NCBI GenBank assembly: GCA_016869045.1
Contig: VGFC01000003.1
Location: forward strand, 2,170-66,169
Direction of reading: 5' to 3'
Length of the DNA stretch: 64,000 nt
Source: Armatimonadota bacterium
GTDB taxonomy: Bacteria > Armatimonadota > Zipacnadia > Zipacnadales > VGFC01
Shown here piece after piece: positions 74 to 63,811 of the stretch; position 1 is the first letter of the stretch, and every line of letters begins with the position of its first letter. The notes below the pieces were generated by a model that saw nothing but the letters and a program-made list of their open reading frames with translations, ran no database searches and was not told where the DNA came from. A program made the position numbers and the translations under genes.

Positions 74-508
74 CTACTTGTAGTAGCGCGGAGGCGAGTA
101 CTTGCCGCCGCGACCATAGCCCGGCGGCGGGCCGACGTTGCGCTGGGCGTGCGACGGCGCCCGGCGCGCCTGGTAGCTGGTGCGCGGCCCGTCGTAGTAC
201 CCGTCATAGCGGTAGTAGCCGTAGGTCCGCGGCCGGTAGTCATACGGGCGATAGACAACCACCGGCGGACCGTAGTCGTAGTAGGTGTACCCGTAGGACC
301 GGTACACGGGAGGCGGGTAGTAGCCGGGCGAGTGGTAGTAATAGTGGGAGTGGCAGTAGTTGTCGTCGTCCAACATCTCGTAGACGATGGCGCCCGCCAA
401 GATGCCGCCCAACACGGCTCCGGCGTCACCCGCCCGCGCCGCACGCTGCAGCCCGAAGCTCGCAGCCAGCACCAGCAGCAGCGCGATCGCGAAGGTCCGA
501 TAGGCTGT
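74..508 (-). CDS. Small secreted Tyr/Pro/Gly-rich protein with N-terminal signal/TM segment and glycine-zipper (GAVLGGILAGAIV); low-complexity YYYHSPGYYPPPVY... tail
   Basis: ORF 74..583 minus; likely start at MRTTAYRTFAIALLLVLAAS (ATG 508..506). Hydrophobic N-terminus, GxxxG zipper, extreme Tyr content. Confidence 0.45.
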   Translation of the reverse strand, partial: TAYRTFAIALLLVLAASFGLQRAARAGDAGAVLGGILAGAIVYEMLDDDNYCHSHYYYHSPGYYPPPVYRSYGYTYYDYGPPVVVYRPYDYRPRTYGYYRYDGYYDGPRTSYQARRAPSHAQRNVGPPPGYGRGGKYSPPRYYK

Positions 509-2605: not shown

Positions 2606-5600
2606 CTACCCCTTCGGCAACGCGTGCCACGGCTCGCGGAGGCTGCGTACGAGGCGCGTCGTGCAGGCCTTCACTTGGGATTCCTCTGCAACCAGGATGA
2701 TCGAGAAGCACCGGTCCTGGTCAATCTCCAGCCGGATCGACCCGCCCCTGACCGGCGCCTCGATCCGCTCGTACTCCACCCACTCGCCGCCCCTGACCTC
2801 GCCGACGAGCGCGACAGGCTTGCTCCACTCCGCGCGCGTGTCGAGCCGCACCGTGCCCTCGGTGAGCGGGAGGACGCACAGCTGCGTGGAGCTGCGGACA
2901 TCTTGCCCGTCGAGGGAGTAGGACATGAAGTGCGCACCCTTCCCGTCCTCCAACGCCAGTAAGGCCGAGTTCTTCGCCCAGACCATGCAGCCGGTGCGGT
3001 GCGGGGTGAGTTCGAGGGGCGGGGCGCCGTCCGCCGTCCGCGCGTTGACCTTGGCGTCGGTTGGGTTCACCCACACCTCGCCGCGCGCCGCTGTGCCGGC
3101 CAGGGGCACGGACAGCGGCAGGGCCGCCCCGAGGGCGTCCCTCGCAGCTCCTGTGTCTCCCAGCACTGTCCGGTACACCAGGCTGTTGCGCGCGGCGATC
3201 CCTTCGGCAAAGCCTTCGTCCCGCTCCAGCGGCCAGGTGCAGAAGAGCACGCGGCCCTTGCCCAGCGCGTTGCTCAGGAGCACCGGCGTCTTGTCCGCGT
3301 CCGTTGCCGCGACGAGGACTTGTGCCCCGGTCGGCTTCACGACGATGGCCGGGTTCACCGTGATCTGTTCCCCGCCGATCTCGGCGGGCAGGCCCGTCTT
3401 CTCATCGCAGGCGACGTTGGGGTAGCGCTCGGCGACGAACTCGACACCACATAACTCCTTCAGTCGGTCGGTCAGCGTGCGCGTGCGTAGCATGTCGTAG
3501 GAGACGTCTCCCGAGACGTACAGCGTGCCGCCGGCCTTCACCCAGTCGAGCAGCTTGGCGCATACGTCATCGGGGATCTGGTAGGGGATTGGGTAGAAGA
3601 TCACCTTCGCTGAGGGGGGAATCGCCTCCAGAGAGCACTCATTCAGCGTCCCGCAGCTCACGCCCATCTCCTGCAGCGTGCGGAAGCATGACAGCGTCGC
3701 TTCGAACACCGTCCACACCGGCTGGCCGAGTCGGTGCGTGTCGGGGGTGAGCACGTAGACGCTGGGCGGCTCGTAGCGCCGCTCGAACTGCCGGAAGGTG
3801 AGCCCCGCCGCGCGGTAGACGTCCAGGCAGTCCTTCTTCACCCAGTCGCCGGGGTAGACCATCCCCCACGGGAAGATCCACTCGACGTTGTCCTTCCAGT
3901 CCCAGTTGTGGATCTTGGAGGCGCCGAGGCCCCAGCCGTAGTGGGTGATCGCGAGCCAGAGCTGCTCCTGCTGCTCGTCGGTGCGGGCGATGTGATAGCC
4001 CCAGTCCTTGCCACCGCCCCAGGCGGGGTGCGTCTTGCAGCCGAACTCGCCGGCGCTCATCGACTTGCCGCGCTCGCGCAGGTCCGCATGGCGCATCACC
4101 GAGGGGAAGCGGGCGATGTCACGCTCGGGCTTGTCGAAGTAGCCGATGTTCGCGCAGGTGTGGTCGCCGATGGCCTGGATGATGTCGATGCCCGGCCCGG
4201 GCGTCTGGTAGTACTCCGACGTGATCGCGTGGTGCTGATCGACCTCGCGAATCGCGCGCACGTGCCGGTTGATCCAGCGCGTCATCAGCTCCACCTTGAA
4301 GCGCGCGAGGTCCATGCCGCGCACATCGTCCCAGCTGTCTGCGCCATACTCCTGTAGGGGCACGTGCCCCAGCGGGCCCGTCACGCGCTCGGGCTTCCAG
4401 GCGGCGGCGAGCGTCTCGTCGGTCGCGTATCGAGTCTTCAGAAACTCGTTCCACAGGCGCTCGACATCCGTGCGCGGCGGCTCGCCGCCACGCTCTTCGG
4501 CAAGCCGCAGGTTGTCGTCCAGGCGGAGCTGGAAGTCCCCGTTGATGTACCAGAGAATCCCCGGCACGTCCTTGTAGCGCTTCACGAACGCCTGAACCCA
4601 GGCCGCCTCCCTCTCCAGCACATCGTCCTCAACCACCACGTTCGCGCCGATGAGCAGCCCCGGCATGTAGACTTGCCCGTACTGCTGCGCGAGCTGCACC
4701 ATCGCATCGGTCTTGCGCAAGAGCGACTCGGGCCACTCGTACGGCGGGCTCTGGCTCACCGCGCTGACCTGCAGGTTCTCGGGCAGGTTCATGCCGGAAT
4801 CGCGCATCGTCTCGAAGTCGCGCTTCCAGACCAGCGGGTTCTCATGCGCCGAGTAGAAGGCGAACGAGAAGCTGTCCGTGCCCTGCAGGAAGTGCTCGCG
4901 CCCGTTCAGCCGGAAGAGGTTGCCCTCCAGCACGCAGTCCGGCCCGGACTTCACCACCTTCTCATCCCACACGCAGAAGCCGGTCTCCATCTTGTCCGAC
5001 GGCCTCTCGTCCAGGCTCAGCGTCGCTTCGACACGGTAGAAGTCTGCCTCAAAGCGCCCCGGGCTCCACTCGACGGTGAACTCGCGGGTCTCGTCGGGTT
5101 GGAGTGTAGCGCCCGGCGAGTGGAGCTGGATCGGCTTGCCCTTGCCGTCGGCAGTGACCTGGAAATCGACGCTGACGGCTTGGGGAGCCGGCCCCCAGTT
5201 GCTGACCTGCACCTTGATCTGCACCGGCTCGCCCTGGCGGTACGTGGCGTAGTTCGTCTCGAGGTTGTGCAGGAACGTCTCGGTGACGAGCGCATCCACG
5301 ATGGGTACGAGCAGCTCGGTGGCCGCCGGCGCATCGCGCGGGAAGAAGTCGAAGTCCGTGGAGCCGAAGATCGCCCAGGCCGACCGCGCATAGTGGCCGC
5401 CGTAGCGGTAGGTGATCGAGGCGGCGCTGCCGCGCAGGCGCTGGTAGCGGTCGTAGCAGTTCACCAGCGGGACGCGCCGCGCGTCGTCGTAGCCGAGGAC
5501 CGTCGTCGCCGACCAGCCCTGCATCGGCGCATCGGCGACGAAGTTCTGAGGCACGATGTACTGATCCGGCGCGGCCCTCGCGAACTCCACGCGCTTCAGG

Positions 5601-7075
5601 GGGAACTGCGCGTCGAACACCCCGATCTGCTCCGGCGCCACCTGCAGTCCGTCCAGCGGCGCGCCGCGGGCCGTGTTCATGATGAGTTCACTCGGCCCGG
5701 CCGCCGCCAGCTTCACGCGCGCACACTTGGAGCCAGAGTGCGGAGTCGCCCCGACGATGCTGGCGAGGTCCTTCTGGGTGCGGAACCAGTTGTGGGGGCG
5801 GCGGTCGTCGGGGGCCGTCACATTCTCGAAGCCCCCGTCGGTGACGTACTCCCGGCCCGCGTCGTCGGTGACCGAGATGTCGTCGATGGACGCCGTGCCG
5901 GTGCAGCGGAAGAGCCCCGCCTTGATCTCGACCACCGCCGCGTTCTGGTCCACCCTGAAGGCATACTGGTTCGCGGTCCAGTCCTGGTCGCCGACCAGGT
6001 GGAGCGTGTCGCGCCAGCTGCCGAGCTTGCCGTCCTTGTCGAACTGGTAGACGGCCAGGTAGGCAAAGCCGCCCGTGACGCCCCGGCAGCGGAGGTGCCC
6101 GCGGAAGGTCATCGCCTTCCCCGGCATGTCGGGCTCGACGGGGATGCGGTAGAACCACGAGCACTCCTCGGGCGTGGGCTTCGCCGCCGCCGGCGGCTCG
6201 CCGCCGACCAGGTTGTTGAACGCATACCCGCCCATTGTGAGCATGTTGCCGCCGCCACGCAGGAAGCGCCGGAACGCATCGGCGGCCGGCGCGGGGAAGG
6301 TCTCGCCATAGGGCAGGATCACTGTGCTGAAGCGCTCGGGCGTCAGGAATAGCCGATCCGCAAGCTGCGCCGCGCTGATGAGCGTGGTCTCGTAGGGCTG
6401 CCCGGGGATCGCGTCGAGAATCTCCTTCAGGTACTCCGGCTCCGAGCCGACGCCCACGACGGGCAGGTCATCCTTCAGGATCGCGATTCCCGGCTTGCCG
6501 CCAGCGGCTCCGGCAGACGGCGGCTGGGCGATCTCGCCGACGTCGGCGGCCTGCTCGCCCTCCACCAGCGTGAAGTCATCCACCCACAGCGTCCCCGAGG
6601 CCTGGAACAGCCCGAAGGGGATCACCAGCCGCGTCGTCTCCTCACCTATCGTGAAGGTGTGCGTGTGGCGCTCCCAGTCGAGCGTGCCCACCGGGTGCGT
6701 GAAGTCGAAGTAGGCGACGTAATCCCCGAACTTGTCGTACTGGTACATGGCGACATACCCGTACCCCTGCACCCCCTCGTTCGCCACGATGTCCTGCGCC
6801 CTCACCCACGCCGACACCGTGTAGGTCGCACCCGGCCTGAAGCCCTCAACCGTCCAGGAGCCGCTGCCGCTGGTCCGTTCGCCGGCCCTCGGCTCGACCA
6901 TCACCCGCACGCTGCGCTTGCCCGAATGCGCCACCTGATCGTCGAACGCCGCGCCGGCGCTCAACGTCAGGTCCAACGGCCGGCGCTCGAAGTCGCCGTG
7001 CTGAATCAGCGAGACGGGCTGGGCGAGGCCGACTGAGGCAAGCAGTGCGGATGCAACGACGAGACAGAGGGTCAT
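2606..7075 (-). CDS. Large secreted glycoside hydrolase (~1490 aa) with N-terminal CBM4/9-like carbohydrate-binding domain and TIM-barrel (clan GH-A-like) catalytic region
   Basis: Signal peptide MTLCLVVASALLASVGLAQP (start moved to internal ATG at 7075); CenC-like CBM region; many W/Y-rich glycosidase-like blocks. Exact GH family not assignable by eye. Confidence 0.6.
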   Translation of the reverse strand: MTLCLVVASALLASVGLAQPVSLIQHGDFERRPLDLTLSAGAAFDDQVAHSGKRSVRVMVEPRAGERTSGSGSWTVEGFRPGATYTVSAWVRAQDIVANEGVQGYGYVAMYQYDKFGDYVAYFDFTHPVGTLDWERHTHTFTIGEETTRLVIPFGLFQASGTLWVDDFTLVEGEQAADVGEIAQPPSAGAAGGKPGIAILKDDLPVVGVGSEPEYLKEILDAIPGQPYETTLISAAQLADRLFLTPERFSTVILPYGETFPAPAADAFRRFLRGGGNMLTMGGYAFNNLVGGEPPAAAKPTPEECSWFYRIPVEPDMPGKAMTFRGHLRCRGVTGGFAYLAVYQFDKDGKLGSWRDTLHLVGDQDWTANQYAFRVDQNAAVVEIKAGLFRCTGTASIDDISVTDDAGREYVTDGGFENVTAPDDRRPHNWFRTQKDLASIVGATPHSGSKCARVKLAAAGPSELIMNTARGAPLDGLQVAPEQIGVFDAQFPLKRVEFARAAPDQYIVPQNFVADAPMQGWSATTVLGYDDARRVPLVNCYDRYQRLRGSAASITYRYGGHYARSAWAIFGSTDFDFFPRDAPAATELLVPIVDALVTETFLHNLETNYATYRQGEPVQIKVQVSNWGPAPQAVSVDFQVTADGKGKPIQLHSPGATLQPDETREFTVEWSPGRFEADFYRVEATLSLDERPSDKMETGFCVWDEKVVKSGPDCVLEGNLFRLNGREHFLQGTDSFSFAFYSAHENPLVWKRDFETMRDSGMNLPENLQVSAVSQSPPYEWPESLLRKTDAMVQLAQQYGQVYMPGLLIGANVVVEDDVLEREAAWVQAFVKRYKDVPGILWYINGDFQLRLDDNLRLAEERGGEPPRTDVERLWNEFLKTRYATDETLAAAWKPERVTGPLGHVPLQEYGADSWDDVRGMDLARFKVELMTRWINRHVRAIREVDQHHAITSEYYQTPGPGIDIIQAIGDHTCANIGYFDKPERDIARFPSVMRHADLRERGKSMSAGEFGCKTHPAWGGGKDWGYHIARTDEQQEQLWLAITHYGWGLGASKIHNWDWKDNVEWIFPWGMVYPGDWVKKDCLDVYRAAGLTFRQFERRYEPPSVYVLTPDTHRLGQPVWTVFEATLSCFRTLQEMGVSCGTLNECSLEAIPPSAKVIFYPIPYQIPDDVCAKLLDWVKAGGTLYVSGDVSYDMLRTRTLTDRLKELCGVEFVAERYPNVACDEKTGLPAEIGGEQITVNPAIVVKPTGAQVLVAATDADKTPVLLSNALGKGRVLFCTWPLERDEGFAEGIAARNSLVYRTVLGDTGAARDALGAALPLSVPLAGTAARGEVWVNPTDAKVNARTADGAPPLELTPHRTGCMVWAKNSALLALEDGKGAHFMSYSLDGQDVRSSTQLCVLPLTEGTVRLDTRAEWSKPVALVGEVRGGEWVEYERIEAPVRGGSIRLEIDQDRCFSIILVAEESQVKACTTRLVRSLREPWHALPKG

Positions 7076-7167
7076 GGGAGGCCTCCGTTGGGGGCGGGTG
7101 GTGGGGTGTTCCACGGAGGCGCGAGCACGTCCTGCCGGGACGCACGGGGGCCGATGAGGTCAGGCTG

Positions 7168-7389
7168 TCACAGGAGCCGCACGAACTCCTCCACCGTCAG
7201 GCCTGCATCGCCAATGAGGCCCCGCAGCAGACCGGGGCCGACGTTCCGATGCAGGGGGACGGCAAGCGTGTAGTCGTGTCCCGGTTTCTGCATCATCAGA
7301 TGACTGCCGCGCATACGAACGCCTCGCCAGCCGGCGCGCTCGAAGGCCCGAGCGATCTCGTCGCCCGAGAGACCCCGGGGAAGCCTCAT
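7168..7389 (-). CDS. hicA: HicA-family toxin (mRNA interferase) of type II toxin-antitoxin system
   Basis: 73 aa; YcfA/HicA-like sequence (GSHLMMQKPGHDYTLAVPLHRN); 4-nt overlap with upstream hicB. Confidence 0.8.
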   Translation of the reverse strand: MRLPRGLSGDEIARAFERAGWRGVRMRGSHLMMQKPGHDYTLAVPLHRNVGPGLLRGLIGDAGLTVEEFVRLL

Positions 7390-7601
7390 CCCAACACGAC
7401 CTCACGCAGCAACTGCCCGGGTTGCAGGGCCGACCGCGTGCGGTCCTCCTCAGCTTCGAGCCAGCCCTCGATCGCCTCGCGGATGTTCGCCATCGCCTCC
7501 TCCTCCGTCTGGCCCTGCGACCAGCATCCCTTGAGGGCCGGGCAAGAGGCAACGAAGAAGCCATCCTCATCCTGCTCTATGACCACCGCTAGCTTGTCCA
7601 T
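7386..7601 (-). CDS. hicB: HicB-family antitoxin (UPF0150)
   Basis: 71 aa from internal ATG (MDKLAVVIEQDEDGFFVASCPALKGCWSQGQTEEEAMANIREAIEGWLEA): classic HicB fold signature. The long upstream ORF extension (7386..8291) is spurious. Confidence 0.75.
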   Translation of the reverse strand: MDKLAVVIEQDEDGFFVASCPALKGCWSQGQTEEEAMANIREAIEGWLEAEEDRTRSALQPGQLLREVVLG

Positions 7602-7675
7602 GGTCGGGCTCCCTGAGCGATGTGGGTTCGCATCCGCAGTATACCCAAACGAGTCGATGCCGTGAAGCCTTGCTC

Positions 7676-9019
7676 CTAGCCTTCCCTCGGCCTGCCCTTC
7701 GCGATCCACTCCTCCCAGGCCTTGCCGAGGCTGATGCCGTGAGTGGCGACGGGGTCTTCGGTCAGGCCGTTCTTGGCCATGCCGGCGGCGATCCAGGCTT
7801 CGAGGCGCTCTTCGAGGGTGCGGGCGAGGTCGGGCTGCTGGTCGGCGAGGTTGTGGAGTTCGTCGGGGTCGGTGCGCAGGTCGTAGAGTTCGCGCGTTGG
7901 GTTGCCGTGGAGGTCGGGCAGGCGCGCGAGGATGAGCTTGTGGGTGTCGTCGCGGATCGCCCATTTCGCCTGCCATGTGCATTCCTGGGAGGTGATGAAG
8001 TCCCGCAGCGGCGTGTGGGAGCCGGTTAGCAACGGGACGAGGCTCTGGCCCTCCATCGCCGGCGGCACATCCAGGTCGAAGGCGGAGAGGATCGTGGGGG
8101 CCACGTCCACATGCTGGGCGAAGTCGGTGACGCGCGTGCCGGGCTCGACGACGCCCGGCCAGCGCACGATGAGCGGGCAGCGGATGTTGCCGTCGTAGAG
8201 GCCGTGGTGGTCGAAGAAGATGTCGTGGCGGTAGTGCATCTCGCCATGGTCGCTGAGGAGGATGACGAGCGTATCCTCCGCGTGGCCGCATTCCTGAAGC
8301 GTCTGCAGGACCTGCCCGACGCCCTCATCCGCGTGGCAGATCTCCCCATCGTAGAGCGCGACCACGTACTCCGCGTCACACATCCCCGGCGGCAGCTTCT
8401 CGAACCACTTGCGCCACATGACGCTGAAGTACTGGTCCGCGAGGGGCGCGAGCGTGTTGCGTGAGGGATCGGTCGGGTCGCCCTCGTAGAAGCAGCGGAA
8501 ACGCTCGGGCGGGAGATACGGCGTGTGCGGGTCCCAGTAATGGATGGCGGCGAAGAAGCGTTCATCGCAGTGCGTGCGCAGCCACGGCAGCACGCGCGTG
8601 TTGAGGCGCTCGCAGCTATAGCCGTCGTCCGGTCCGGGGAACGTGGAGTCCACCAGGAACTCGAAGCCGTGGACGAACCAGCTCTTGTAGCGCGGCAGGC
8701 AGTCGAACGACGCGGTCAGGAAGCCCGCCTGCCGCAGCAGCGCGGGGAACCACGGCGTGCCGGGCTTGAGGTCGTTGTCGCCCTGCGCGCCGCCCTTGTG
8801 GCTGACGACACCGTGGGTGAGGCTGTGCTGCCCCGTGTAGACCGTCGTGAACGAGGGCTGCGTCGGCACCGCGGGCGCGAAGAACCGCTCGCACACCGCG
8901 CCCTCGCTGGCGAGGCGGTCGATGTTCGGGCTGGTCGGACGGTGGTACCCGTAGCAGCCGAGGTGGTCGGCGCGGAGTGAGTCGACGAAGACAAGCAGGA
9001 TGTTGCGTGGCTCGGTCAT
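7676..9019 (-). CDS. Sulfatase-like (alkaline-phosphatase superfamily) protein lacking signal peptide and lacking the canonical C-x-P-x-R formylglycine motif
   Basis: N-terminal LLVFVDSLRADHLGCYGY and NIDRLA blocks match sulfatases, but the active-site position reads VPTQPSFTTVYTG instead of CTPSRxxxxTG. Confidence 0.65.
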   Translation of the reverse strand: MTEPRNILLVFVDSLRADHLGCYGYHRPTSPNIDRLASEGAVCERFFAPAVPTQPSFTTVYTGQHSLTHGVVSHKGGAQGDNDLKPGTPWFPALLRQAGFLTASFDCLPRYKSWFVHGFEFLVDSTFPGPDDGYSCERLNTRVLPWLRTHCDERFFAAIHYWDPHTPYLPPERFRCFYEGDPTDPSRNTLAPLADQYFSVMWRKWFEKLPPGMCDAEYVVALYDGEICHADEGVGQVLQTLQECGHAEDTLVILLSDHGEMHYRHDIFFDHHGLYDGNIRCPLIVRWPGVVEPGTRVTDFAQHVDVAPTILSAFDLDVPPAMEGQSLVPLLTGSHTPLRDFITSQECTWQAKWAIRDDTHKLILARLPDLHGNPTRELYDLRTDPDELHNLADQQPDLARTLEERLEAWIAAGMAKNGLTEDPVATHGISLGKAWEEWIAKGRPREG

Positions 9020-9133
9020 GTGGCGGTCGAGTCCCGTCTCTTGCCCCGGCGGAAGGGGCCCGTGATGCGGACTGCCCCGGGCATGGCGGGCAGAACGGGC
9101 GTCTCTTCCCCGGAGCCAAGGAAGGCCCCTTCG

Positions 9134-10198
9134 TCACTTGACCGCCAGGTAACCCTCCCGCCAGTTGTTGTCGATCTCCAGGGAGACGATCGGCTCCAGG
9201 TCACGCATCGCCAGCATGCAGCCACCCTCGAGCCCCTTGCCGCCCGCGCCGAGCGGCGGCCGGGGTGGGTAGAGAAGGTCCGTCGTGCGGCCATCGAGGA
9301 GAGCCGTCGGTTGCCCCTCCGTCAGTTGCAGGCTGTGACCGCCGACGTCAAGGAGCCACGCGGGCCCGTCCCCGACCCGGCGCCAGGTCCAGCCGCGCCT
9401 GGCGGCCAGGGCCGCCACGTCTACCACCGGCGTGTAGCCGTTCGCGAGGTAGGCATGGATCGGGGCTTCGTCCGCGCCCACCCGCACGCGCGTGACGTGC
9501 GGCCACCACTCCACGACGATCCCGTCCACCTCGCCGTCGAAGTTGGTGAGCTCCCAGGTGAGCTTGCGGTTCGCCTCATCAAGCGTGTAGCCGGCGGGGG
9601 CGATGTTGGCGAACGCTCCCGCGACATCGCCGTAGCTGACCGTGATGCTCAGGCGGTCAAGGGTCCCCTTCCAGGTGCCGGCCGTCTTCAGCAGGTACGC
9701 GAACCACTCGAAGCCGAGGTTCGCGCCTGACGCGCTGCCGCCGTGGTAGTGGCTGTAGGTGATCTCGAGGCGCCGAGTCTGATCGGCAGCGAAGGGGACG
9801 CGGGTCACGAACCAGGACTCGGCGCCCTCGTTGGGCGGCACAAGCGGAGGGGCGCCTTCGAGTGGCGGCAACTGCTCCACCGTGACCGCCTGACCATCCA
9901 CCACGAAGGCAACGTCCTGGAGGTTCAGGTCCGGGGGACGGTTGGCCCACCGCACCTGCGGGAAGCCGATCAGCACGTCGTGGGCCGCCCCCTCGTTGCG
10001 GAAGTCCATCACCGCCTTCACCGTAGCCCGCTCCGGCCCGAGGTCCACGGTGAGATCCTCCGCCACCATGCGCACGTCGCACGGGTCCTGGCGGCGAGCA
10101 GCAGCCCCTCCTCGGACCTCGATGGAGACGGGGTCAGCGCGAAGACCGCCGACCGGAGCAGCCACTGCCAACGCGCACACGAGCCAGTACCGCATCAC
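9134..10198 (-). CDS. Hypothetical secreted protein (signal peptide; beta-rich)
   Basis: N-terminal MMRYWLVCALAVAAPVGGLRA signal; no recognisable catalytic motifs. Confidence 0.45.
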   Translation of the reverse strand: MMRYWLVCALAVAAPVGGLRADPVSIEVRGGAAARRQDPCDVRMVAEDLTVDLGPERATVKAVMDFRNEGAAHDVLIGFPQVRWANRPPDLNLQDVAFVVDGQAVTVEQLPPLEGAPPLVPPNEGAESWFVTRVPFAADQTRRLEITYSHYHGGSASGANLGFEWFAYLLKTAGTWKGTLDRLSITVSYGDVAGAFANIAPAGYTLDEANRKLTWELTNFDGEVDGIVVEWWPHVTRVRVGADEAPIHAYLANGYTPVVDVAALAARRGWTWRRVGDGPAWLLDVGGHSLQLTEGQPTALLDGRTTDLLYPPRPPLGAGGKGLEGGCMLAMRDLEPIVSLEIDNNWREGYLAVK

Positions 10199-10274
10199 CC
10201 AAGCCTCCCAGTGACGCTGTTGTCGCGCATCCAGTGGTTGTACGCCTGCGGGGCGACGAAGGTTGAGCGCGCGG

Positions 10275-11372
10275 CTAGCGGACCGCCAACTCGGCGCTCA
10301 GGTCCAGGTAGCGCTTGATCCCCTCGGGTGTGACGTTCCAGGGGATGTGGTTGCCGATGCACATCATGTAGCCGCCGGTCATGCGGGAGGTCTCGACCAT
10401 GCTCTCGACCATGCGGCGGATCTCGTCGGGATCGTTGCGCGTGAGGATGCGGTTGTCGCCCTCGCCGGCAACGAAGGGGTTGTCGTACTTCCGGGCGATT
10501 TGCTTGTAGTTGGTGAAGGGCTCGGAGATGATCCCCCGGGCGCCGCAGGCCATCACGTCGTCCGCGTAGGCGTCAACGCAGCCGTCCACCATGAAGATGA
10601 CCTCGATGCCTTTCGCCCTCAGCAGCCCCCAGAACTCCTCGTAGCGCGGGAAGATGTACTTGTGCATCCAGGCGGGCGAGCAGACCGGGCCGCGGGAGGT
10701 CACGATATCATCGTGGCAGACGGCGAACTTCACCGGCAGGCGGGCGAAGGTGCGGAAGACGCGCCGGTTGATCTCCGCGAACTCGTCCATGATCCGCTCG
10801 AAGCGCGGGTCCAGGCAGCACTCCAGGAACAGCTCCCAGCCAAAGGTCAGCAGCGGCCACATGAACATCGTGTTGTAGAAGCCGCACGAGGACGTTGAGC
10901 CCTCCGGCGCGGTGTCGCCCCACTCGGCGGGGTAGCCCGCGCGGTAGGCCTCGTAGAGCTTCTCCTCGTCGGAGTAGTCGCGCGATTCCACCACGGGGAT
11001 GTGTGTGAAGTCGCCCTGCGCCAGTGGGCTGAAGGCGAAGACCTCCTCGGGCGTGTGGAACTTCAGGCCCCAGTCCCAGATGCCCGTCTCCGAGTCGCCC
11101 CAGCGGACGTGGTGGCGGCCCTGCTCGTCAGTGGAGGAACTCTCGCCCTGCAGATCGAGCTTCGGCCGGGGCTTTGGGTCGTCGGTCTCCGGCACGCCCA
11201 GCTCCAGCATCGGGTACAGCTCCCGCAGCTTCAGCCGACACTCGCGCGGGTGCTCGTAGTAGTCGATGCCCGTGAGATACGTCTCCGCATCAGGACACGA
11301 CCAGTGCTCCCAGTGGGGAATGCGCTTGGGCCACAGGCCCATGTAGGCAAGGTAGCGGTCCGAGTACTCCAT
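10275..11372 (-). CDS. Uroporphyrinogen decarboxylase (URO-D) family protein (MtaA/CmuA-like fold), paralog 1
   Basis: Shares blocks GFYNTMFMWPLLTFGWELF, CHDDIV, GNHIP with the two other URO-D-like ORFs in the window (27409..28494, 28607..29641). Confidence 0.65.
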   Translation of the reverse strand: MEYSDRYLAYMGLWPKRIPHWEHWSCPDAETYLTGIDYYEHPRECRLKLRELYPMLELGVPETDDPKPRPKLDLQGESSSTDEQGRHHVRWGDSETGIWDWGLKFHTPEEVFAFSPLAQGDFTHIPVVESRDYSDEEKLYEAYRAGYPAEWGDTAPEGSTSSCGFYNTMFMWPLLTFGWELFLECCLDPRFERIMDEFAEINRRVFRTFARLPVKFAVCHDDIVTSRGPVCSPAWMHKYIFPRYEEFWGLLRAKGIEVIFMVDGCVDAYADDVMACGARGIISEPFTNYKQIARKYDNPFVAGEGDNRILTRNDPDEIRRMVESMVETSRMTGGYMMCIGNHIPWNVTPEGIKRYLDLSAELAVR

Positions 11373-11430
11373 GCGGCGGGCCTCCCGTGCTCAGGTGGGT
11401 ACGGCGAGGGGCGGACACATGGGTCCGCCC

Positions 11431-12804
11431 CTACGGACGTCTGAGGCTCAGGGCGATTTCCTCAACGTACTCCGGCGACTGCAGCGTCAGCGCGCCGCCC
11501 TCGTGCTCTACCACTCGCGCCCCCTCGCTCTCCCCGCTCCTTGGGTTCAGCCATCCGACGCGGTAGTTGCCTGCAGGGACGTCGAGCGTCAGCTCGACCT
11601 GCGTGCCGCCCTTCAGGTAGATCGCGTACTGCTTGCCGGGCTCGGCGAGGCAGCGCGCGACGGCGCCGTCCGGGACGCCGCTGGTGATGGTCTCGCCATG
11701 GGGCGCCATGCGGAGGAAGTCGAAGCTCTCGAGGAAGCGCTTGAGCGTCGTGAGCTGGCTCCGCAGCCGCGGGCCGCCGCCGCCAGGGGCGGAGACCTCA
11801 GCGGTGCCCTCGGGATGCGCAGCGGTGAACGAGTAGTCCAGGTTGTCGTAGACCGCGCCGCCGGCGAGCATGAACTCCCAGGCGTCCGTGCGGTAAGGCA
11901 GGTCCTCGGAGCCCTTGAAGCCCGTCTCGTCGAAGGCGATGGGGCGGTTGAGGCCCCAGTTCACCTTCACTGCATCGGGCGGGTTCGCGTAGTGGAAGTT
12001 GAGGATCGACACGAGCGGGTTCGGGTCGGTGACCTCCGCCGAACCGTTCGCGATGTTCTGCGCGATGAGGTGCTTGTGAGGGAAGTCCGCCTCGGCCTCC
12101 GCGATCACCCGGGCGATTCGGGCTTGCCAGTCGAGCGTCACGCCGCCGAAGTACGGCTCGTTGCAGATCTCATAGTACAGGTTCGGCACGTCGCGCAGCT
12201 CGCTCACGATCTTGCGGGTCATCGCCTCCTGGATCGCGGTCAGTTGCGGATGCTTCAGGGCCAGGACCTCGGTTCGCGGCACGTCAGGCGTGCCGTTCAC
12301 GTTGTTCGCGGGGTGCAGCGGGCTGAGCCGCCACATCGAGTCCTCGTAGTACGGGCAGAAGAGCGCCAGCTCCACGACGACCCCGCGCTGGCCCGCCTCC
12401 CGGCAGAAGGTCTTCAGGCGCGCGAAGTAGGCTGCATCCCAACGCGTGAGGTCGAACTTGCTCCCGCCATTGGCGTAGCCGGGCTCCGGGCTGCGCGCCC
12501 ACGGGCAGATCAGCCGCCCCTCGGCGGGGGCCAGCGTGTTGTCGCGGATACCAAAGGACCGCGAATCCTCGCAGTAGACCCCGGTGAAGGTGCGGGTGAG
12601 GTTGAACTCGCACTGCTGCAGCTCCGTGAAATACGGAACGCAGTCGAAGTCCAGGTTCAGCACCGCGCCATAGTGCTCCCCGGAGGTGATCAGCACCGTT
12701 GGCTTGCCGCCGAAGGTGAAGTAGCGAGGGTTGTCCGGGTGCAGCGCGATGGGTGGCGGCGCGGAGGCGGCTGAAGCGGCGAGTGAGAGCACCATGGTTA
12801 GCAT
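11431..12804 (-). CDS. Secreted glycoside hydrolase family 5-like (cellulase superfamily) protein
   Basis: Signal peptide MLTMVLSLAASAASA (start moved to ATG 12804); ICNEP catalytic-acid motif characteristic of GH5/clan GH-A. Confidence 0.6.
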   Translation of the reverse strand: MLTMVLSLAASAASAPPPIALHPDNPRYFTFGGKPTVLITSGEHYGAVLNLDFDCVPYFTELQQCEFNLTRTFTGVYCEDSRSFGIRDNTLAPAEGRLICPWARSPEPGYANGGSKFDLTRWDAAYFARLKTFCREAGQRGVVVELALFCPYYEDSMWRLSPLHPANNVNGTPDVPRTEVLALKHPQLTAIQEAMTRKIVSELRDVPNLYYEICNEPYFGGVTLDWQARIARVIAEAEADFPHKHLIAQNIANGSAEVTDPNPLVSILNFHYANPPDAVKVNWGLNRPIAFDETGFKGSEDLPYRTDAWEFMLAGGAVYDNLDYSFTAAHPEGTAEVSAPGGGGPRLRSQLTTLKRFLESFDFLRMAPHGETITSGVPDGAVARCLAEPGKQYAIYLKGGTQVELTLDVPAGNYRVGWLNPRSGESEGARVVEHEGGALTLQSPEYVEEIALSLRRP

Positions 12805-12899
12805 CGCAGTCCTTGCGCGAGGCGCCGAAGATGAACGAGGCGGAGGGCTTTCGCCGGCTCCGCCTCGTGGTTCGTCTGAAGGGTGCGGCACTCCTCGGG

Positions 12900-29677: not shown

Positions 29678-30604
29678 CTACGGCGCTTTGGGCTGATCCG
29701 GAGGCTGAGGGGCAGGAGGTGGGGCGGGTGGCTCCTCGCCGGGCTTTGCCTCTTCCTTCTTCTCGCGCTTGAAGGTGCCGATGATCGGGCCGGTCCAGAA
29801 GCGCTCGCCCTCGACTTCGACCTTGACCCAGGGCGTCGTGAAGGTGTTGCCGTTGTCCATGACGGCCTTCACGGGATCGCCCTTGAGGGTCAGCAGGTCG
29901 TCCTTCTCGACGTACTCGGCCTCCTCCCCGTAGACCTTCTTGTCCTCCTGCTCGGCGACGACGTTGCCCGTCGCCACGGCGCGCTTCTCCTCGTACCAGT
30001 AGCGGATCTGGTTGCAGGTGACGGTCGTCAGCTTCTCCTTGTACTCCTCCCACCGGCCCTCCTTCTGCTCGCCTTCCTTCGCGGGCTCGGCGGGGGCCTC
30101 GCCTGTGGCCTCGACTTCGGGCTTCGGTTCCTCCTTCTTCTTCTGCGTGAGGAGGCGCACGTTGCCGACGATGTCGGCGACCTCCTCGCCGAAGTCCGCC
30201 GTGATCAGGTCCCCGGTGATGGTCGTCTCGGGCTGCACGATCTTCAGGTTGCCCGTGGCGCGGGCGGTGTCCTCATCCTCGTTGTACTGGGCCTGATCGC
30301 AGTACAGGTGCGTGTCCTTGTGGCGGAAGTGGACGTTGCCCGTGAGGAAGTACAGGTTCTTCTCGGGGTCGTAGGTCATCAGGTCCGCGTGCTCGATGTG
30401 GACCGGTTCGTCGGCTACCTTCCCCTCCGCGTCCTGCTTCTCGGCGTCGGGAGGCTTCGCTTCGGGTCCCGCTGCCTTCGTGTCTGGTGGCGGCGGCTCC
30501 TGACCGGGCACGGTGACCACCAGCAACCCGCACAAGAGAGCGGCTGAGACGCTGATCCACCAGCGACTGCTCCGGCCCTCGGAGGTCCACCCCAAGTGTC
30601 TCAT
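29678..30604 (-). CDS. lptA: LptA/OstA-like periplasmic protein with Lys/Glu-rich linker and Pro-rich C-terminus
   Basis: Start at ATG 30604 (MRHLGWTSEGRSSRWWISVSAALLCG signal); repeated ...LTGNVHFRHKDTHLYCDQA.../...ATGNVVAEQED... OstA-N-like motifs; 4-nt overlap with upstream LptC-like gene. Confidence 0.5.
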   Translation of the reverse strand: MRHLGWTSEGRSSRWWISVSAALLCGLLVVTVPGQEPPPPDTKAAGPEAKPPDAEKQDAEGKVADEPVHIEHADLMTYDPEKNLYFLTGNVHFRHKDTHLYCDQAQYNEDEDTARATGNLKIVQPETTITGDLITADFGEEVADIVGNVRLLTQKKKEEPKPEVEATGEAPAEPAKEGEQKEGRWEEYKEKLTTVTCNQIRYWYEEKRAVATGNVVAEQEDKKVYGEEAEYVEKDDLLTLKGDPVKAVMDNGNTFTTPWVKVEVEGERFWTGPIIGTFKREKKEEAKPGEEPPAPPPAPQPPDQPKAP

Positions 30605-31338
30605 GGCGAGTGCCCCGTCCGTTCCTTGGCTTCCTGAACGTCGATGACCATCTGTGGGTCCCGCAGGCGGAACCCGCCCGTCTCCAGCTTGTAGGTCAGG
30701 TCCCGCCCGACTCCCTCGCTGCGGTCCGTCTGCATGCGGATCTGGTTTGGGCAGTACACCGTCTGCGTCGGCGTGTCGAACCGCAGCCCGGCGGTGATGA
30801 CGGTGACCTTGTCCTGCGTGCGCAACATCACCTGCCCGGGCGCGGTGAGATTGCGGCTCTTGTTGTCCCAATGCACCTGGTTGGTGGTGATGACGGCGCC
30901 CTTGGGCGAGACCACGCGCACGTTGCCCTCAACATCGAAGTCGTAGCTCGTGGTGTCGTACTTCACCGTGTTGGCGGTCACGCGTACGGCCGGGTGGCCC
31001 TGCTTGTCGTAGATGAGACCCTCTCGCATAGCGCCGGCAGTCACCGTCTGGCCACCCGTCTCAACGGACAGATGCGCGAGCTTCACTTTCCAGGTCGGTC
31101 GGCCGCCCTCGAAGTGCTCCGGCGCGAACTGCTCGACCTCAACGACCGGCTGCTTGCCCTCCTCCTGGGTCGGCCCGACGGTCCCGGGCGTCGCCCCCGC
31201 CGGCTGACGGCGCACATACAGGACCGCGCCGGCGATCAGGCCCACCAGAATGACGAGCAGCACGGTTGTCGTGAGGGCGCGGACGGACACAGAGTTGGCC
31301 TCTTGGCGCGGCGTTCCCAAAGGGTGCGCGGGAAGCAC
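30601..31338 (-). CDS. lptC: LptC-like membrane-anchored periplasmic protein
   Basis: Single N-terminal TM (LTTTVLLVILVGLIAGAVLYV) followed by beta-jellyroll-like region; position immediately upstream of and translationally coupled to the LptA-like gene. Confidence 0.45.
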   Translation of the reverse strand: MLPAHPLGTPRQEANSVSVRALTTTVLLVILVGLIAGAVLYVRRQPAGATPGTVGPTQEEGKQPVVEVEQFAPEHFEGGRPTWKVKLAHLSVETGGQTVTAGAMREGLIYDKQGHPAVRVTANTVKYDTTSYDFDVEGNVRVVSPKGAVITTNQVHWDNKSRNLTAPGQVMLRTQDKVTVITAGLRFDTPTQTVYCPNQIRMQTDRSEGVGRDLTYKLETGGFRLRDPQMVIDVQEAKERTGHSP

Positions 31339-31344
31339 GGCACT

Positions 31345-31508
31345 GGGCGTGATGAATCACGCCCCTACACGGGGGCACGATGAATCGTGCCCCTACATGA
31401 CGGCGATCCACGGCCCTGCGCGAAGTAGGGGCGCGATTCATCGCGCCCGGTTGTGTAGAGGCGCCATTCATGGCGCCCGCCAACCCTTCTCATGCAGCGC
31501 CCCTACAG
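31345..31508. repeat. REP/BIME-like cluster A: 4-5 palindromic units of consensus TGTAGGGGC-NN-GATTCATC-NN-GCCCC in both orientations (REPIN-like)
   Basis: Units at 31345..31369, 31371..31397 (GTAG head on minus), 31425..31448, 31454..31478 (head on plus), partial 31497..31508. Stem dinucleotides vary (GT/AC, AC/GT, GC/GC, CC/GG) but keep complementarity. ORFs called over this region (e.g. 31250..31585) are spurious. Confidence 0.7.
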
Positions 31509-32123
31509 CGGCGGCGGCGGCGGGCCAAAGGAGAGCAGGACGTTGCCGAGGTCGGTGGTCTGGCCCGACGACACCGGCACGTTGAACCGGATGGTGCCGG
31601 CGGTGGTGCTTGGGTCGTAGAAGTTCACCTGCGCCGAACCGGCCGGGACGTTGTAGAGCGTGAAGCGACCCGATCCGTCCGCACGCGACAGCGCCGAGAT
31701 CGTACCGGACTGCACGATCCCGCCGCTGACCGCGGAGTTGTTCGAGGCCAACACGAGCCTGCCCGTGACGGCTCCCCGCCCAAGGTTCAGCGTGGGCGCC
31801 AGATACACGGTGCCCACGCTGTTCTGGCCGGCAGACAGCGTCACGGGCACGTTGGAGGAATCGTGGCCGCCCGCCGTCACACTCAGCATCTGGTTCCCGG
31901 TAGGCGCATCATTGATGGTGAAGCGCCCGTCGGCGCCGGTCTGCGCGCTCGCCGTGTTCCCGACGCGGGCCGTAGCGTTGGCGACCGGCGCCTGGGTTCC
32001 GTCGTCCACCACGCGACCGGTCACGGTCGCGACTCCCCCTCCGGCGCCGCTGCCGCCGCAGCCCGTGATCGTAGCCGCGAGGAAGCCGGCAAGTAGCACC
32101 GCGATTGAGACTCGTGCAGTCAT
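31503..32123 (-). CDS. Lipoprotein with two carboxypeptidase-regulatory-like (CarboxypepD_reg) domains
   Basis: Lipobox ITGC; TVTGRVVDDGTQAPVANATARV...DGRFTINDAP and VTGRLV...DGSGRFTLYNVPAG patterns. Confidence 0.55.
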   Translation of the reverse strand: MTARVSIAVLLAGFLAATITGCGGSGAGGGVATVTGRVVDDGTQAPVANATARVGNTASAQTGADGRFTINDAPTGNQMLSVTAGGHDSSNVPVTLSAGQNSVGTVYLAPTLNLGRGAVTGRLVLASNNSAVSGGIVQSGTISALSRADGSGRFTLYNVPAGSAQVNFYDPSTTAGTIRFNVPVSSGQTTDLGNVLLSFGPPPPPL

Positions 32124-51391: not shown

Positions 51392-52270
51392 CTACGCCAC
51401 GACCTTATTGAGCGGGATCTCGATGATGCCCTCGGCGCCGCGCCGCTTCAGTTCGGGGATGAGGTCGCGGAGCGTGTGCTGGTCCACGACCGTCTCGACG
51501 GCGTGCCAGATCTCGTCGGAGAGGTGCGAGATCGTCGGCTTCTTCAGCGCCGGCAGCGCATCGACGACGGCCAGCACGTCATCCTTGTGGACGTTCATCT
51601 TCAGCAAGACCTTCTGCCGCGCGGCGAGGGCGCCGGTCAGCAGCAGGGCGATGTTCTCCAGCTTCGAGCGCTTCCAGCGGTCGGCCCAGGCCGCCTGGTT
51701 CGCGATGAGGCGCGTGCTCGATTCCATCAGCGTATCGACGATTCGCAGGTTGTTCGCGCGGAGGGTGCTGCCGGTCTCGGTCCCCTCGATGATGGCGTCC
51801 ACCAGGTCCGGTATCTTCGCCTCGGTCGCGCCCCACGAGAACTCGACATGCGCGGTCACACCGTGCTTCTCCAGGTACTTCGCAGCGACGTTGACCAGCT
51901 CCGTGGCGATGCGCTTGCCCTGCAGGTCCTTTGCGCAGTGGATGTCGCTGTCCTCGTGGACCGCGAGGACCCAGCGGTACATCCCCAGGCCCTGCTTGGC
52001 GTAGACGAGATTCGCCACCTCGACAACATCGGCGCCGCGCTCCAGAATCCAGTCGAGCCCGGTGATCCCCGCATCGAGCACCCCGTCGGCGACATACGAC
52101 GGCATCTCCTGAGCGCGGAGCAACACCGCGGTGATCTCCGGATCATCGACGCTCGGGAAGTACGCCCGCGCGCCGACGCTGAACCGCCAACCCGCGTGCT
52201 CGAACAGCTCCAGCGTCGCCTGCTGCAGACTGCCCTTCGGAAGACCGATTCTCAGTTGCTGATCAGCCAA
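51392..52270 (-). CDS. hisG: ATP phosphoribosyltransferase, long (HisG-L) form
   Basis: 292 aa, N-terminal [16 protein letters not shown]..., C-terminal regulatory domain present. Confidence 0.85.
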
Positions 52271-52310: not shown

Positions 52311-52555
52311 GGGCGCCATGAATGGCGCCCCTACGCGATCGGGCGCGATGAGGATTGTGTTGGGAAAGGGCCCCGTCAAAGGAAGAACCCTCTCCTACGC
52401 GCTCTACGTGGCTCGTAGGTCGGGATACCAATCCCGACAATGCGTTTATCAACACAATCTGAACCGCGCTCCTACATCACATAGAGCGGTGCATCGCCGT
52501 CATGTAGGGGCACGATTCATCGTGCCCCAGTGTAGGGGCGTGATTCATCACGCCC
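52311..52555. repeat. REP/BIME-like cluster B: same palindromic family as cluster A plus an enclosed long-range 10-bp inverted repeat (gattgtgttg ... caacacaatc) and inner hairpin gtcggga-taccaa-tcccgac
   Basis: Units 52311..52334 (gggcgccatgaatggcgcccctac), partial 52341..52352, 52502..52527 (tgtaggggcacgattcatcgtgcccc), 52530..52555 (tgtaggggcgtgattcatcacgcccc). IR arms 52353..52362 / 52450..52459. ORFs over this region (52294..52638; N-terminal part of 52477..53583) are spurious. Confidence 0.7.
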
Positions 52556-52586
52556 CATGCCGTGCTTCTCGTACGCCCCCAAGGCT

Positions 52587-52913
52587 TCACCATTCGACCT
52601 CGTTCCGGATCGGGCGCGTCTGGGACACCAGCCAGTAGAACGCGACCGCGAGTGGGAGCCCCACGAGCAGGCCAACCCACCATAGGTGCGTCACGTGCGC
52701 CACGATGTTGCCCGGCACATAGGCCAGCATCCCGCACCCAACGAACCGCATCGTCCAGGCGGGCGACGGCCGGTTGACGGGCGGGATGGGAAGCAGGCCC
52801 GTCGCCTGCCCAACGACCTCGGGCCGGAGGATCAGGTAGGCGGCAGCGGCGAACCACCCCGCCCAGAAGAGCAGCACCCAGGCCCATTGGGCTGCAGAAC
52901 CGTCTGCTTCCAT
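52587..52913 (-). CDS. Small membrane protein (3 TM), unknown function
   Basis: 108 aa, Trp-rich hydrophobic segments. Confidence 0.4.
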   Translation of the reverse strand: MEADGSAAQWAWVLLFWAGWFAAAAYLILRPEVVGQATGLLPIPPVNRPSPAWTMRFVGCGMLAYVPGNIVAHVTHLWWVGLLVGLPLAVAFYWLVSQTRPIRNEVEW

Positions 52914-52916
52914 GGC

Positions 52917-53585
52917 CTACGCGACCTCCGCCGGCTGCCGCGCCGCCCGTAGTCGTCTGACGCCCGCATAGATAAAGTAGCAGCCCAGCGCGAGGAGTGC
53001 AAGCCCGCAGATCGAGATGAGCGCCTGGTGGCCGGTCACGCCGAGGAGGTTGCGGCCTCGGCCGACGGCATACGCGACAAGCGCGTACCAGAGGAAGTCG
53101 GACGAGACGTGCCCCGTGTAGAACGTGGTCCAGGCGATCGGCGAGCGACTGCCGACCGTCGCGATCTGGCCGGCACCCACCGTCGCCCACCAGATCGCGA
53201 AGTAGGGGTTGGCGAGGCTCGCGCCTGCTCCCGATAGGGCCACGCCCAGCAGGCTTGGCGGCTCTGGTGAGCCGCCCCACGCCGCGGCGGCCACGGCGGC
53301 AGCCGACCGCAACATGTCGGCGCCCGCCAGGATCAGCGCCAGCCCGCCGACGAACCCGATGCCCGCGAGGACCTTCGGCTTCTGCACGAAGGCCCCGATC
53401 CCGAACATCAGCATCAGCACGACGGGTATCTCGACCGCCGCGTGCCCCAGGATCGCGACGATCCCCGCCAGCGTCCCATGTCTGGCCGCCGCGCCGATGA
53501 CGAGTGCAAGCACGGGGCCCGGCATCAGGGCCCCGCTCAGTCCCGTCACGAACGCCATGCCGAACAGGCCAACCAGCCGGCACAT
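52917..53585 (-). CDS. LysE/RhtB-family amino-acid exporter
   Basis: 222 aa, 6 TM, N-terminal ...FVTGLSGALMPGPVLALVIGAAARHG... typical of LysE-type translocators. Confidence 0.7.
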   Translation of the reverse strand: MCRLVGLFGMAFVTGLSGALMPGPVLALVIGAAARHGTLAGIVAILGHAAVEIPVVLMLMFGIGAFVQKPKVLAGIGFVGGLALILAGADMLRSAAAVAAAAWGGSPEPPSLLGVALSGAGASLANPYFAIWWATVGAGQIATVGSRSPIAWTTFYTGHVSSDFLWYALVAYAVGRGRNLLGVTGHQALISICGLALLALGCYFIYAGVRRLRAARQPAEVA

Positions 53586-63741: not shown

Positions 63742-63811
63742 GGTTGGCGATGTGTCGAAGCTGGCGCTTCGACCTACGGCAGCGTTGTAGGACGGAGCGC
63801 CCGCTCCGTCA

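Follow-up and report, generated by a model that had tools for sequence, protein, structure and literature searches.

The present analysis deals with a 64,000-nucleotide stretch of DNA from an Armatimonadota bacterium (GenBank assembly GCA_016869045.1, contig VGFC01000003.1, positions 2,170 to 66,169), hereafter called the window, and in particular with a group of short palindromic repeats, named cluster A, which occupies the entire 164-bp gap between an LptC-like open reading frame (ORF) and a lipoprotein ORF, just as an earlier reading of the letters without database searches (the sequence-only reading) had described. In cluster A, at 31345-31478, two minus-strand units are followed, after a 28-nt spacer, by two plus-strand units, and the unit consensus is GTAGGGGC-NN-S-ATTCAT-S-NN-GCCC, with 24 nt, an 8-bp stem and a 4-nt loop. 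Cluster A very probably consists of repetitive extragenic palindromic (REP) elements with a GTAG foot, of the type that accompanies subclass 2.4 (group 4 of Bertels) of the REP-associated tyrosine transposases (RAYT or TnpAREP). Their length falls within the 20-40 bp expected of REP palindromes. The inverted arrangement, resembling REP doublets forming hairpins (REPIN), and the count of four to five units given by the sequence-only reading both hold, there being four full units and a truncated fifth, although the spacer measures 28 nt and not 27 bp. With at most three mismatches allowed, the pattern finds seven full units in the window and none in 100 dinucleotide-preserving shuffles of it, and a repeat finder gives the same direct and inverted relations among the cluster A units. 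The GTAG head, previously called invariant, is indeed present in all seven units, but the letters beyond it vary, the fourth unit of cluster A reading GTAGAGGC at this point. Three called ORFs cross the cluster (31139-31483, minus; 31250-31585, plus; 31365-31493, minus) and, as had been suspected, they are most likely spurious, because the translated repeats give peptides such as GAMNRAPT and RGAIHRA.

One line of evidence on the nature of these units comes from their stems. One genome per species of the Genome Taxonomy Database (GTDB) was scanned with the pattern GTAGGGGCNNSATTCATSNNGCCC, in which complementarity is not required, and matches were obtained in at least 118 genome stretches, besides those in viral contigs, so that the repeats form a dispersed family and not a motif confined to two loci. 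About 122 of 139 units have perfectly complementary triplets at positions 9-11 and 18-20, with at least 12 distinct Watson-Crick combinations among them. In a sample of 105 distinct units from the window and the at least 118 genome loci, not selected for pairing, 98.5% of the cells are paired, and both-sided changes occupy 76 cells against 16.3 +/- 3.2 in shuffles (none of 500 reached 76), while pairing falls to 31-53% once the 3' partners are slid. Compensatory both-sided change is seen at each of the three variable stem pairs, and one G-U and three U-G pairs also occur among the stems of this sample. Selection therefore keeps the pairing of the hairpin and not the letters of its three variable pairs, as the sequence-only reading had proposed from four covarying dinucleotide pairs in the window (GT/AC, AC/GT, GC/GC and CC/GG); these changes are truly compensatory, but the fourth is a G-to-C/C-to-G change at the third pair (GCC...GGC). 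The stem letters also track host composition, with TTG/CAA loci averaging 46% GC and GCG/CGC loci 63%.

The foot behaves as an integral part of this hairpin. A scan of viral contigs with the pattern GGGCNNSATTCATSNNGCCC, which carries no foot requirement, gave 123 matches, of which the 26 with a GTAG foot are hairpin-forming, family-type units, while most of the non-hairpin matches lack GTAG and many of them recur in near-identical flanks; the GTAG foot thus belongs to the hairpin unit. A pyrimidine precedes GTAG in 85% of units and C follows GCCC in only 6%, and because C is so depleted at this +1 position the fourth foot base stays unpaired.

Exact units of the family are found at the 5' end, at the 3' end and inside RAYT genes in other metagenome contigs (L327, L328, L329 and L330-332; Table 1), so the tie between this REP type and RAYT genes that the sequence-only reading had drawn from the GTAG tetranucleotide is borne out by physical linkage, with the same units flanking or interrupting the genes. 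The first unit of L329 is GTAGGGGCGTGATTCATCACGCCC, identical to the window unit at 31345-68. Units or doublets lie in frame between the HuH motif and WQRNYYEH in L327 (4211-4284), L330 (6292-6365) and L328 (10285-10308), where they encode peptides of the kind VGARFIAP...GAINRAP, and in a Myxococcales metagenome-assembled genome (MAG; L086) two units lie immediately upstream of a truncated RAYT remnant. The related contigs L327, L328 and L329 share a ScpA-ScpB-RAYT-SpoU methylase neighbourhood, and the genes flanking the RAYT of L327 and L328 are about 85% identical while their REP content is unlike, which points to a chromosomal, vertically kept RAYT gene with REPs turning over around it. L328 has in addition a gene of 558 aa that separates ScpB from the RAYT; a REP pair lies after ScpB, just before the start of this gene. 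In another lineage (L330-L332, genes 3022-11927), the ATTCAT-linked RAYT stands between hsdS and hsdR of a type I restriction-modification operon, and an additional REP pair is found in the region called as hsdM (4387-4455).

These enzymes were reached by several routes. Neither tblastn with E. coli RayT nor the enterobacterial RayT hidden Markov model (HMM) matched the window or 234 loci, and a search for E. coli RayT homologues returned Enterobacteriaceae only; the ATTCAT-linked enzymes are too far from E. coli RayT to be detected by a RayT HMM, which scores the RAYT fragment of L046 (see below) at E = 1.8. Against plasmids, RayT retrieved a Chloroflexota RAYT (CP069395.1) and cyanobacterial RAYTs, each with its own flanking GTAGGG.. 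or GTAGGA.. hairpins. A metagenome scan with an alignment of the E. coli/Chloroflexota type yielded 80 REPtrons, about 65 of them flanked by hairpins of the GTAGGGTG, GTAGGGCG or GTAGGATG type, the upstream unit on the plus strand and the downstream unit on the minus strand; ATTCAT-type units were found at none of the 80, which serve as a control of another subclass with its own hairpins. A viral-contig scan for the small RAYT subfamily gave one weak match. The HMM built from the 80 REPtrons had a single borderline match among the REP-bearing loci, in an Omnitrophota MAG (L046), where an ORF cut at the contig end reads ...VGVRFIEPKNRKQIRLKNYDYKSDGYYFITICT...THIHVIF, with an ATTTAT-loop unit overlapping its 5' end and an ATTCAT unit about 270 nt upstream; its relatives, Y1_Tnp proteins about 150 aa long, carry the JGI name “REP element-mobilizing transposase RayT”. 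In one further contig (L325), a gene for such a protein at 1397-1855 is bracketed by GTAGGGGTTCGATTTATCGAACCC (plus, 1415-38) and GTAGGGGTCGGATTTATCCGACCC (minus, 1862-85); L325 and L046, as ATTTAT-loop relatives, have ATTCAT/ATTTAT units at both gene ends. For high-GC relatives we used a synthetic probe, a consensus extended at its ends by the peptides VGARFIAP and GRDESRPY that REPs encode; the probe itself is not data, while its matches are actual entries of the database. These number at least 7967 proteins of 180-220 aa at about 60% identity, under names such as RayT, “REP-associated tyrosine transposase” (Desulfomicrobiaceae) and transposases of Calidithermus, Thermogutta, Zixibacteria, Chloroflexi and Bipolaricaulota.

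The ATTCAT-linked RAYTs match only the NCBIfam model NF047646, “REP-associated tyrosine transposase” (E 1e-18 to 1e-20), and Pfam Y1_Tnp, and the relatives P0146-P0263, together with the L327 gene, have PNH[IL]HGI, WQRNYYEH and (E)YIxNNP within 180-220 aa. Subclass 2.4 of TnpAREP was described as having NH[IFV]H, WQ and YIxNNP, a length of about 194 aa and in-frame REP insertions, with REPs that show three G-C pairs at the stem bottom and are scattered over phyla (PMC6006769). Judged by their sequences, the linked RAYTs match these published hallmarks point for point, and the resemblance to the subclass 2.4/RAYT group 4 REPs (PMC6006769, PMC5581495) extends to the GT[AG]G foot, the “canonical long” hairpin with its three G-C pairs at the stem bottom, the motifs NH[IL]H, WQRNYYEH and YIxNNP in about 190-210 aa, the scattered phyla and the occasional “double foot”, which we found as GTAG...CTAC units in L002 and L016. 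Peptides of the type VGA..., the in-frame translation of GTAGGGGC, are present in 76 of 120 relatives, and the GTAGGGGC foot therefore seems to be the mark of subclass 2.4, with many hairpin flavours. In addition, the six ATTCAT-linked RAYTs lie closest to one another within the 120 relatives, which suggests that enzyme and loop diverge together.

Each unit comprises an unpaired YGTAG foot, a stem with three G-C pairs at its bottom, above which three pairs covary freely and one A-T pair is added, and a fixed TTCA loop (the ATTCAT centre). By analogy with the biochemistry of E. coli, Stenotrophomonas and Marinomonas TnpAREP (PMC8266576, PMC3479197), a mechanism may be proposed in which the unit would fold into a hairpin on single-stranded DNA. 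A single-copy HUH/Tyr enzyme, the RAYT, encoded elsewhere in the genome, would bind this hairpin, read its foot and loop, use GTAG as a guide, cleave a nearby CT or CA and rejoin the ends, and units or inverted pairs of units would thereby be copied to other intergenic sites. TnpAREP enzymes of other subclasses act on single-stranded REPs, with GTAG guiding CT/CA cleavage, and some of them tolerate no change in the loop positions (PMC8266576); the fixed foot and loop and the covarying stem may thus be said to fit that biochemistry. Such a hairpin-reading RAYT would explain why foot and loop are fixed, why the stem needs only to pair and why inverted pairs are able to form a long hairpin. The unit anatomy, its covariation, the dispersal of the family and the linkage of identical units to RAYT genes in other genomes are shown directly; we infer that the units are mobilised enzymatically, that the system may be active in the source genome, and that a role at the host level, for example the protection of mRNA 3' ends, may accompany it.

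Several points weigh against the assignment to subclass 2.4 and have to be kept in mind. The source genome was seen as 64 kb only, with seven full units at two loci (clusters A and B), and a cognate RAYT and a high copy number, which for REPs typically means more than 100 copies, are accordingly unproven for the source organism. As the sequence-only reading had stated, no RAYT lies in the 64-kb window, where HMMs for the enterobacterial RayT, the E. coli/Chloroflexota-type RAYT and the cognate subclass gave no match, and the RAYT-linked examples come from the other contigs and not from the source genome. NF047646 scores 66-72 bits on the linked enzymes, which is below its equivalog cut-off of 80. 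The ATTCAT-unit peptides in 6 of the 120 proteins listed do not amount to a frequency, given that the probe deliberately held REP-encoded peptides. To our knowledge, there is no biochemical work on subclass 2.4 enzymes. REP binding and cleavage by a RAYT have been shown for subclass 2.2 and 2.5 enzymes only (PMC8266576).

The arrangement and the folding of the units bear on what else they might be. Among 218 units from all loci, 37 neighbour pairs are inverted with GTAG outward, 14 are inverted with GTAG inward and 19 are tandem, with a spacing of mostly 17-60 nt; cluster A is a double inverted pair with its feet inward, whose single strand folds into a single long composite hairpin, at -53.4 kcal/mol (z = -5.8) for the DNA and at -101.3 kcal/mol (z = -5.7) for the transcribed strand as RNA. 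Only 43% of units are inside long ORFs, against 88% of random positions, and nothing is conserved between or around the 24-nt units, an all-against-all BLAST of the ORFs from 118 loci having revealed no enriched neighbour family; its small clusters were nitroreductases and sigma factors. A permissive Rfam scan of 31200-31650 returned noise only (best E 0.1). A CRISPR array, an integron attC site and a DNA uptake sequence were considered and dropped, since the units are palindromic and in two orientations, their spacing is irregular and their flanks are unconserved.

It is rather unlikely that the hairpins are kept mainly for a role in RNA, as a 3'-end protector, a processing site or a terminator or attenuator, with their spread being secondary. 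Such a role would agree with the position of both clusters between co-directional genes, with the strong folding of the transcript, with the G-U and U-G pairs in the stems and with the view of Di Nocera et al. (PMC3733652) that many GTAG REPs are transcribed and are located downstream of coding regions. However, cluster A was found to contain no terminator-like U-tract, terminator consensus or sigma-70-like promoter consensus, and the units occur in both orientations, so that the RNA sequence and loop differ (UUCA vs. UGAA) while the DNA features are fixed; moreover, an RNA role does not explain why an unpaired GTAG foot is fixed or why the units are linked to RAYT genes, and it would in any case be compatible with a REP origin instead of an alternative to it. 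Far less probable still is that the units work as duplex operators for a dimeric DNA-binding protein or a nucleoid factor. Their near-palindromic sequence would suit this, and E. coli REPs and bacterial interspersed mosaic elements (BIME) are established to bind IHF, gyrase and Pol I (PMC2817692, PMC3479197), but three of the eight stem pairs covary for pairing where a duplex-reading protein would fix the letters, the TC centre is asymmetric and the foot one-sided, and more than 20 phyla have no common specific regulator. The least probable explanation, that the units are not RAYT-dependent REPs but terminal or relict parts of a miniature inverted-repeat transposable element or of an autonomous insertion sequence of the IS200/IS605 type, draws on the subterminal hairpins of IS200/IS605, which likewise form on a single strand, are served by a Y1 HUH enzyme and have a 5' guide tetranucleotide that selects the cleavage site (PMC8266576), but it fails on the 24-nt units dispersed alone with nothing conserved between or around them, on the absence of any transposase or accessory gene between the hairpins and of tnpA and tnpB from the flanks, and on the RAYT-like character of the linked genes, which are single and hold a syntenic ScpA-ScpB-RAYT-SpoU site in three related contigs.

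The REP reading of cluster A agrees, furthermore, with what is known of other GTAG-footed systems. A superfamily of GTAG-tagged REPs was defined in eight phyla (Di Nocera, De Gregorio and Rocco 2013, PMC3733652), and that superfamily shares with our units the unpaired terminal GTAG, stems of 6-13 bp with complementary substitutions, short loops, and an occurrence as singletons, as head-head, tail-tail and head-tail dimers, as clusters and as REPtrons, placed between unidirectional or convergent genes. The REP/BIME-RayT (YafM) system of E. coli and the REPIN-RAYT systems of Pseudomonas are alike in their GTAG foot plus hairpin, in their inverted, extragenic and dispersed pairs and in having a single-copy HUH/Tyr enzyme flanked by its own REPs, while E. 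coli REPs differ in being longer, in their obligatory bulge and in belonging to RAYT subclass 2.2; the motifs specific to BIMEs and the IHF sites do not seem to occur in our units, no IHF model having been run. Cluster A is therefore a described class of REP, whose flavour and reach extend known biology and leave the accepted picture of REP and RAYT unchanged.

The second locus of the family in the window, cluster B, lies upstream of hisG (Table 1), and both clusters are placed between same-strand genes, with spacers of 28 and 169 nt that have no conservation between them. A 368-aa ORF (52477-53583, minus) with no Pfam match has its 3' end crossing the cluster B units at 52504-52555, and it is either a spurious or extended call or a gene with a C-terminus borrowed from the REPs. 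The stop codon of the lipoprotein ORF is the TAG at 31503-31505 in the foot of the truncated fifth unit, and that of another ORF (11431-12891, minus) is likewise the TAG (11431-11433) in the foot of GTAGGGGCGGACCCATGTGTCCGCCC, a unit of a sister flavour; these two gene ends may have been set or reset by REP insertion. The window also has a second family of GTAG-footed hairpins, in which the foot is extended differently; its members GTAGGTCGGGATACCAATCCCGAC, GTAGGTCGAAGCGCCAGCTTCGAC and GTAGGACGGAGCGCCCGCTCCGTC all have stems of 8 bp and loops of 4 nt, and the latter two form a feet-inward pair directly upstream of an alanine racemase gene. These hairpins point to a second REP type in the genome, and perhaps to a second RAYT. 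Of the 423 occurrences of GTAG in the whole window, 14 have a perfect hairpin of 7 bp or more after them, against 1% or less for most other tetranucleotides tried.

Table 1. REP units, related hairpins and genes in the window, and family units linked to RAYT genes in other contigs; positions are those of the sequence named.
Feature	Sequence	Position	Strand	Remarks
REP unit A1	window	31345..31368	-	GTAGGGGCGTGATTCATCACGCCC, perfect 8-bp stem; GTAG foot is the right end on the plus strand
REP unit A2	window	31373..31396	-	GTAGGGGCACGATTCATCGTGCCC
Spacer, 28 nt	window	31397..31424	.	between two inward GTAG feet; loop of the composite long hairpin
REP unit A3	window	31425..31448	+	GTAGGGGCGCGATTCATCGCGCCC, most frequent variant in public genomes
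REP unit A4	window	31455..31478	+	GTAGAGGCGCCATTCATGGCGCCC, degenerate: foot-proximal G to A, first stem base mismatched
Truncated fifth unit	window	31497..31506	-	GTAGGGGCGC
Downstream flanking gene, LptC/OstA-like	window	30601..31338	-	weak Pfam LptC match, E 3.6e-4
Upstream flanking gene, lipoprotein	window	31503..32123	-	CarboxypepD_reg domains
Cluster B unit	window	52311..52334	-	GTAGGGGCGCCATTCATGGCGCCC, upstream of hisG (51392-52270, -)
Cluster B unit	window	52504..52527	+	GTAGGGGCACGATTCATCGTGCCC
Cluster B unit	window	52532..52555	+	GTAGGGGCGTGATTCATCACGCCC
Sister-flavour unit	window	11409..11434	-	GTAGGGGCGGACCCATGTGTCCGCCC: GTAGGGGC foot, different hairpin
Second-family hairpin	window	52415-52438	+	GTAGGTCGGGATACCAATCCCGAC
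Second-family hairpin	window	63754-63777	-	GTAGGTCGAAGCGCCAGCTTCGAC
Second-family hairpin	window	63787-63810	+	GTAGGACGGAGCGCCCGCTCCGTC
RAYT gene	L327	3836-4609		units 3863-86 (+), 4211-34 (+), 4261-84 (-), 4523-46 (+), 4570-93 (-)
RAYT gene	L328	10001-10615		units 9920-43 (-), 10285-308 (-), 10508-31 (+)
RAYT gene	L329	296-922		units 303-326 (+), 919-42 (+), 980-1003 (-)
RAYT-linked units	L330-332			units 6292 (+), 6342 (-), 6583 (+)

Beyond the window, the 18 fixed bases of the unit recur in the at least 118 genome stretches across more than 20 phyla, in taxa that include Chloroflexota, Acidobacteriota, Armatimonadota, Gemmatimonadota, Omnitrophota, Nitrospirota and Zixibacteria, and also Firmicutes, Actinobacteria, Bacteroidota, Patescibacteria, Thermotogae and Gallionella. 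Among the matches listed, 117 of the 118 stretches are MAGs, for which mis-binning could inflate the range, and the sole isolate is Erwinia sp. S63, with an exact pattern match; several MAGs contributed 2-5 separate contigs, and because of this, and because the stem letters match host GC, the units appear to be resident in their hosts. Pantoea megaplasmids contain GTAGGGTCGCCATT[CT]ATGGCGACC, and this Pantoea/Erwinia REP has the same foot, stem length and ATTYAT centre and is one compensatory base pair (G-C to T-A) away from the GCC variant of the window, with stem letters that are fixed differently; the likeness concerns the REP sequence alone. The window itself has no close match, in DNA or protein, to any of the loci retrieved. 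Other GTAGGGGC-foot flavours (GTAGGGGCAGACCTGCGTGTCTGCCC, GTAGGGGCCGCCCCACGTGGCTGCCC and GTAGGGGCGGCTTTATGCCGCCC) adjoin ATTCAT units in L029, L100, L195 and L284 (995-1075), the first three being Longimicrobium MAGs and one viral contig, and several flavours thus coexist in one genome. In two viral contigs of 42-43% GC (L184, 1-1100, and L222; IMGVR_UViG_3300044212_000114 and _000068), a 214-bp tandem repeat holds in each copy two inverted family units, GTAGGGGCCCCATTCATGGCGCCC and GTAGGGGCGTAATTCATTACGTCC, an array structure that differs from the usual singletons and dimers.

Subclass 2.4 was reported from “Cyanobacteria, Bacteroidetes and various phyla” on the basis of 1354 complete genomes, whereas the ATTCAT flavour reaches more widely, over its more than 20 mostly uncultured phyla. 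Text searches of the literature with exact 18-22-mers found no paper on this GTAGGGGC-N3-ATTCAT-N3-GCCC flavour, in which it departs from the subclass 2.4 REPs on record, the 24 family consensuses of Di Nocera not being compared, and both the flavour and its cross-phylum reach may be unreported. A tentative reading, to which we give somewhat less than an even chance, is that the ATTCAT REP and its own clade of subclass 2.4 RAYTs make up a single REPtron lineage in which 18 nt stayed unchanged across more than 20 phyla and only the three free stem pairs drifted toward host GC, the lineage having spread among, or persisted in, Firmicutes, Actinobacteria, Bacteroidota, Patescibacteria, Omnitrophota and Erwiniaceae.

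In summary, for annotation, cluster A explains several spurious ORFs, two real genes of the window borrow their TAG stop from a REP foot, and peptides such as VGARFIAP, GRDESRPY and GAMNRAPT mark non-coding repeats where they turn up in protein sets from metagenomes. For the family, these units provide a REP flavour that is readily searched for and whose matching RAYT clade lies outside Proteobacteria, the contrast of a fixed foot and loop with a covarying stem predicts which parts the enzyme reads, and the spread across phyla offers a test case for horizontal transfer vs. ancient REPtron retention. REPIN-RAYT systems have been described as lineage-specific and vertically inherited, whereas the ATTCAT flavour crosses phyla; if the single-lineage reading is true, this would be the most broadly distributed single REP flavour known and a counter-example to the lineage-bound, vertically inherited view of these systems.

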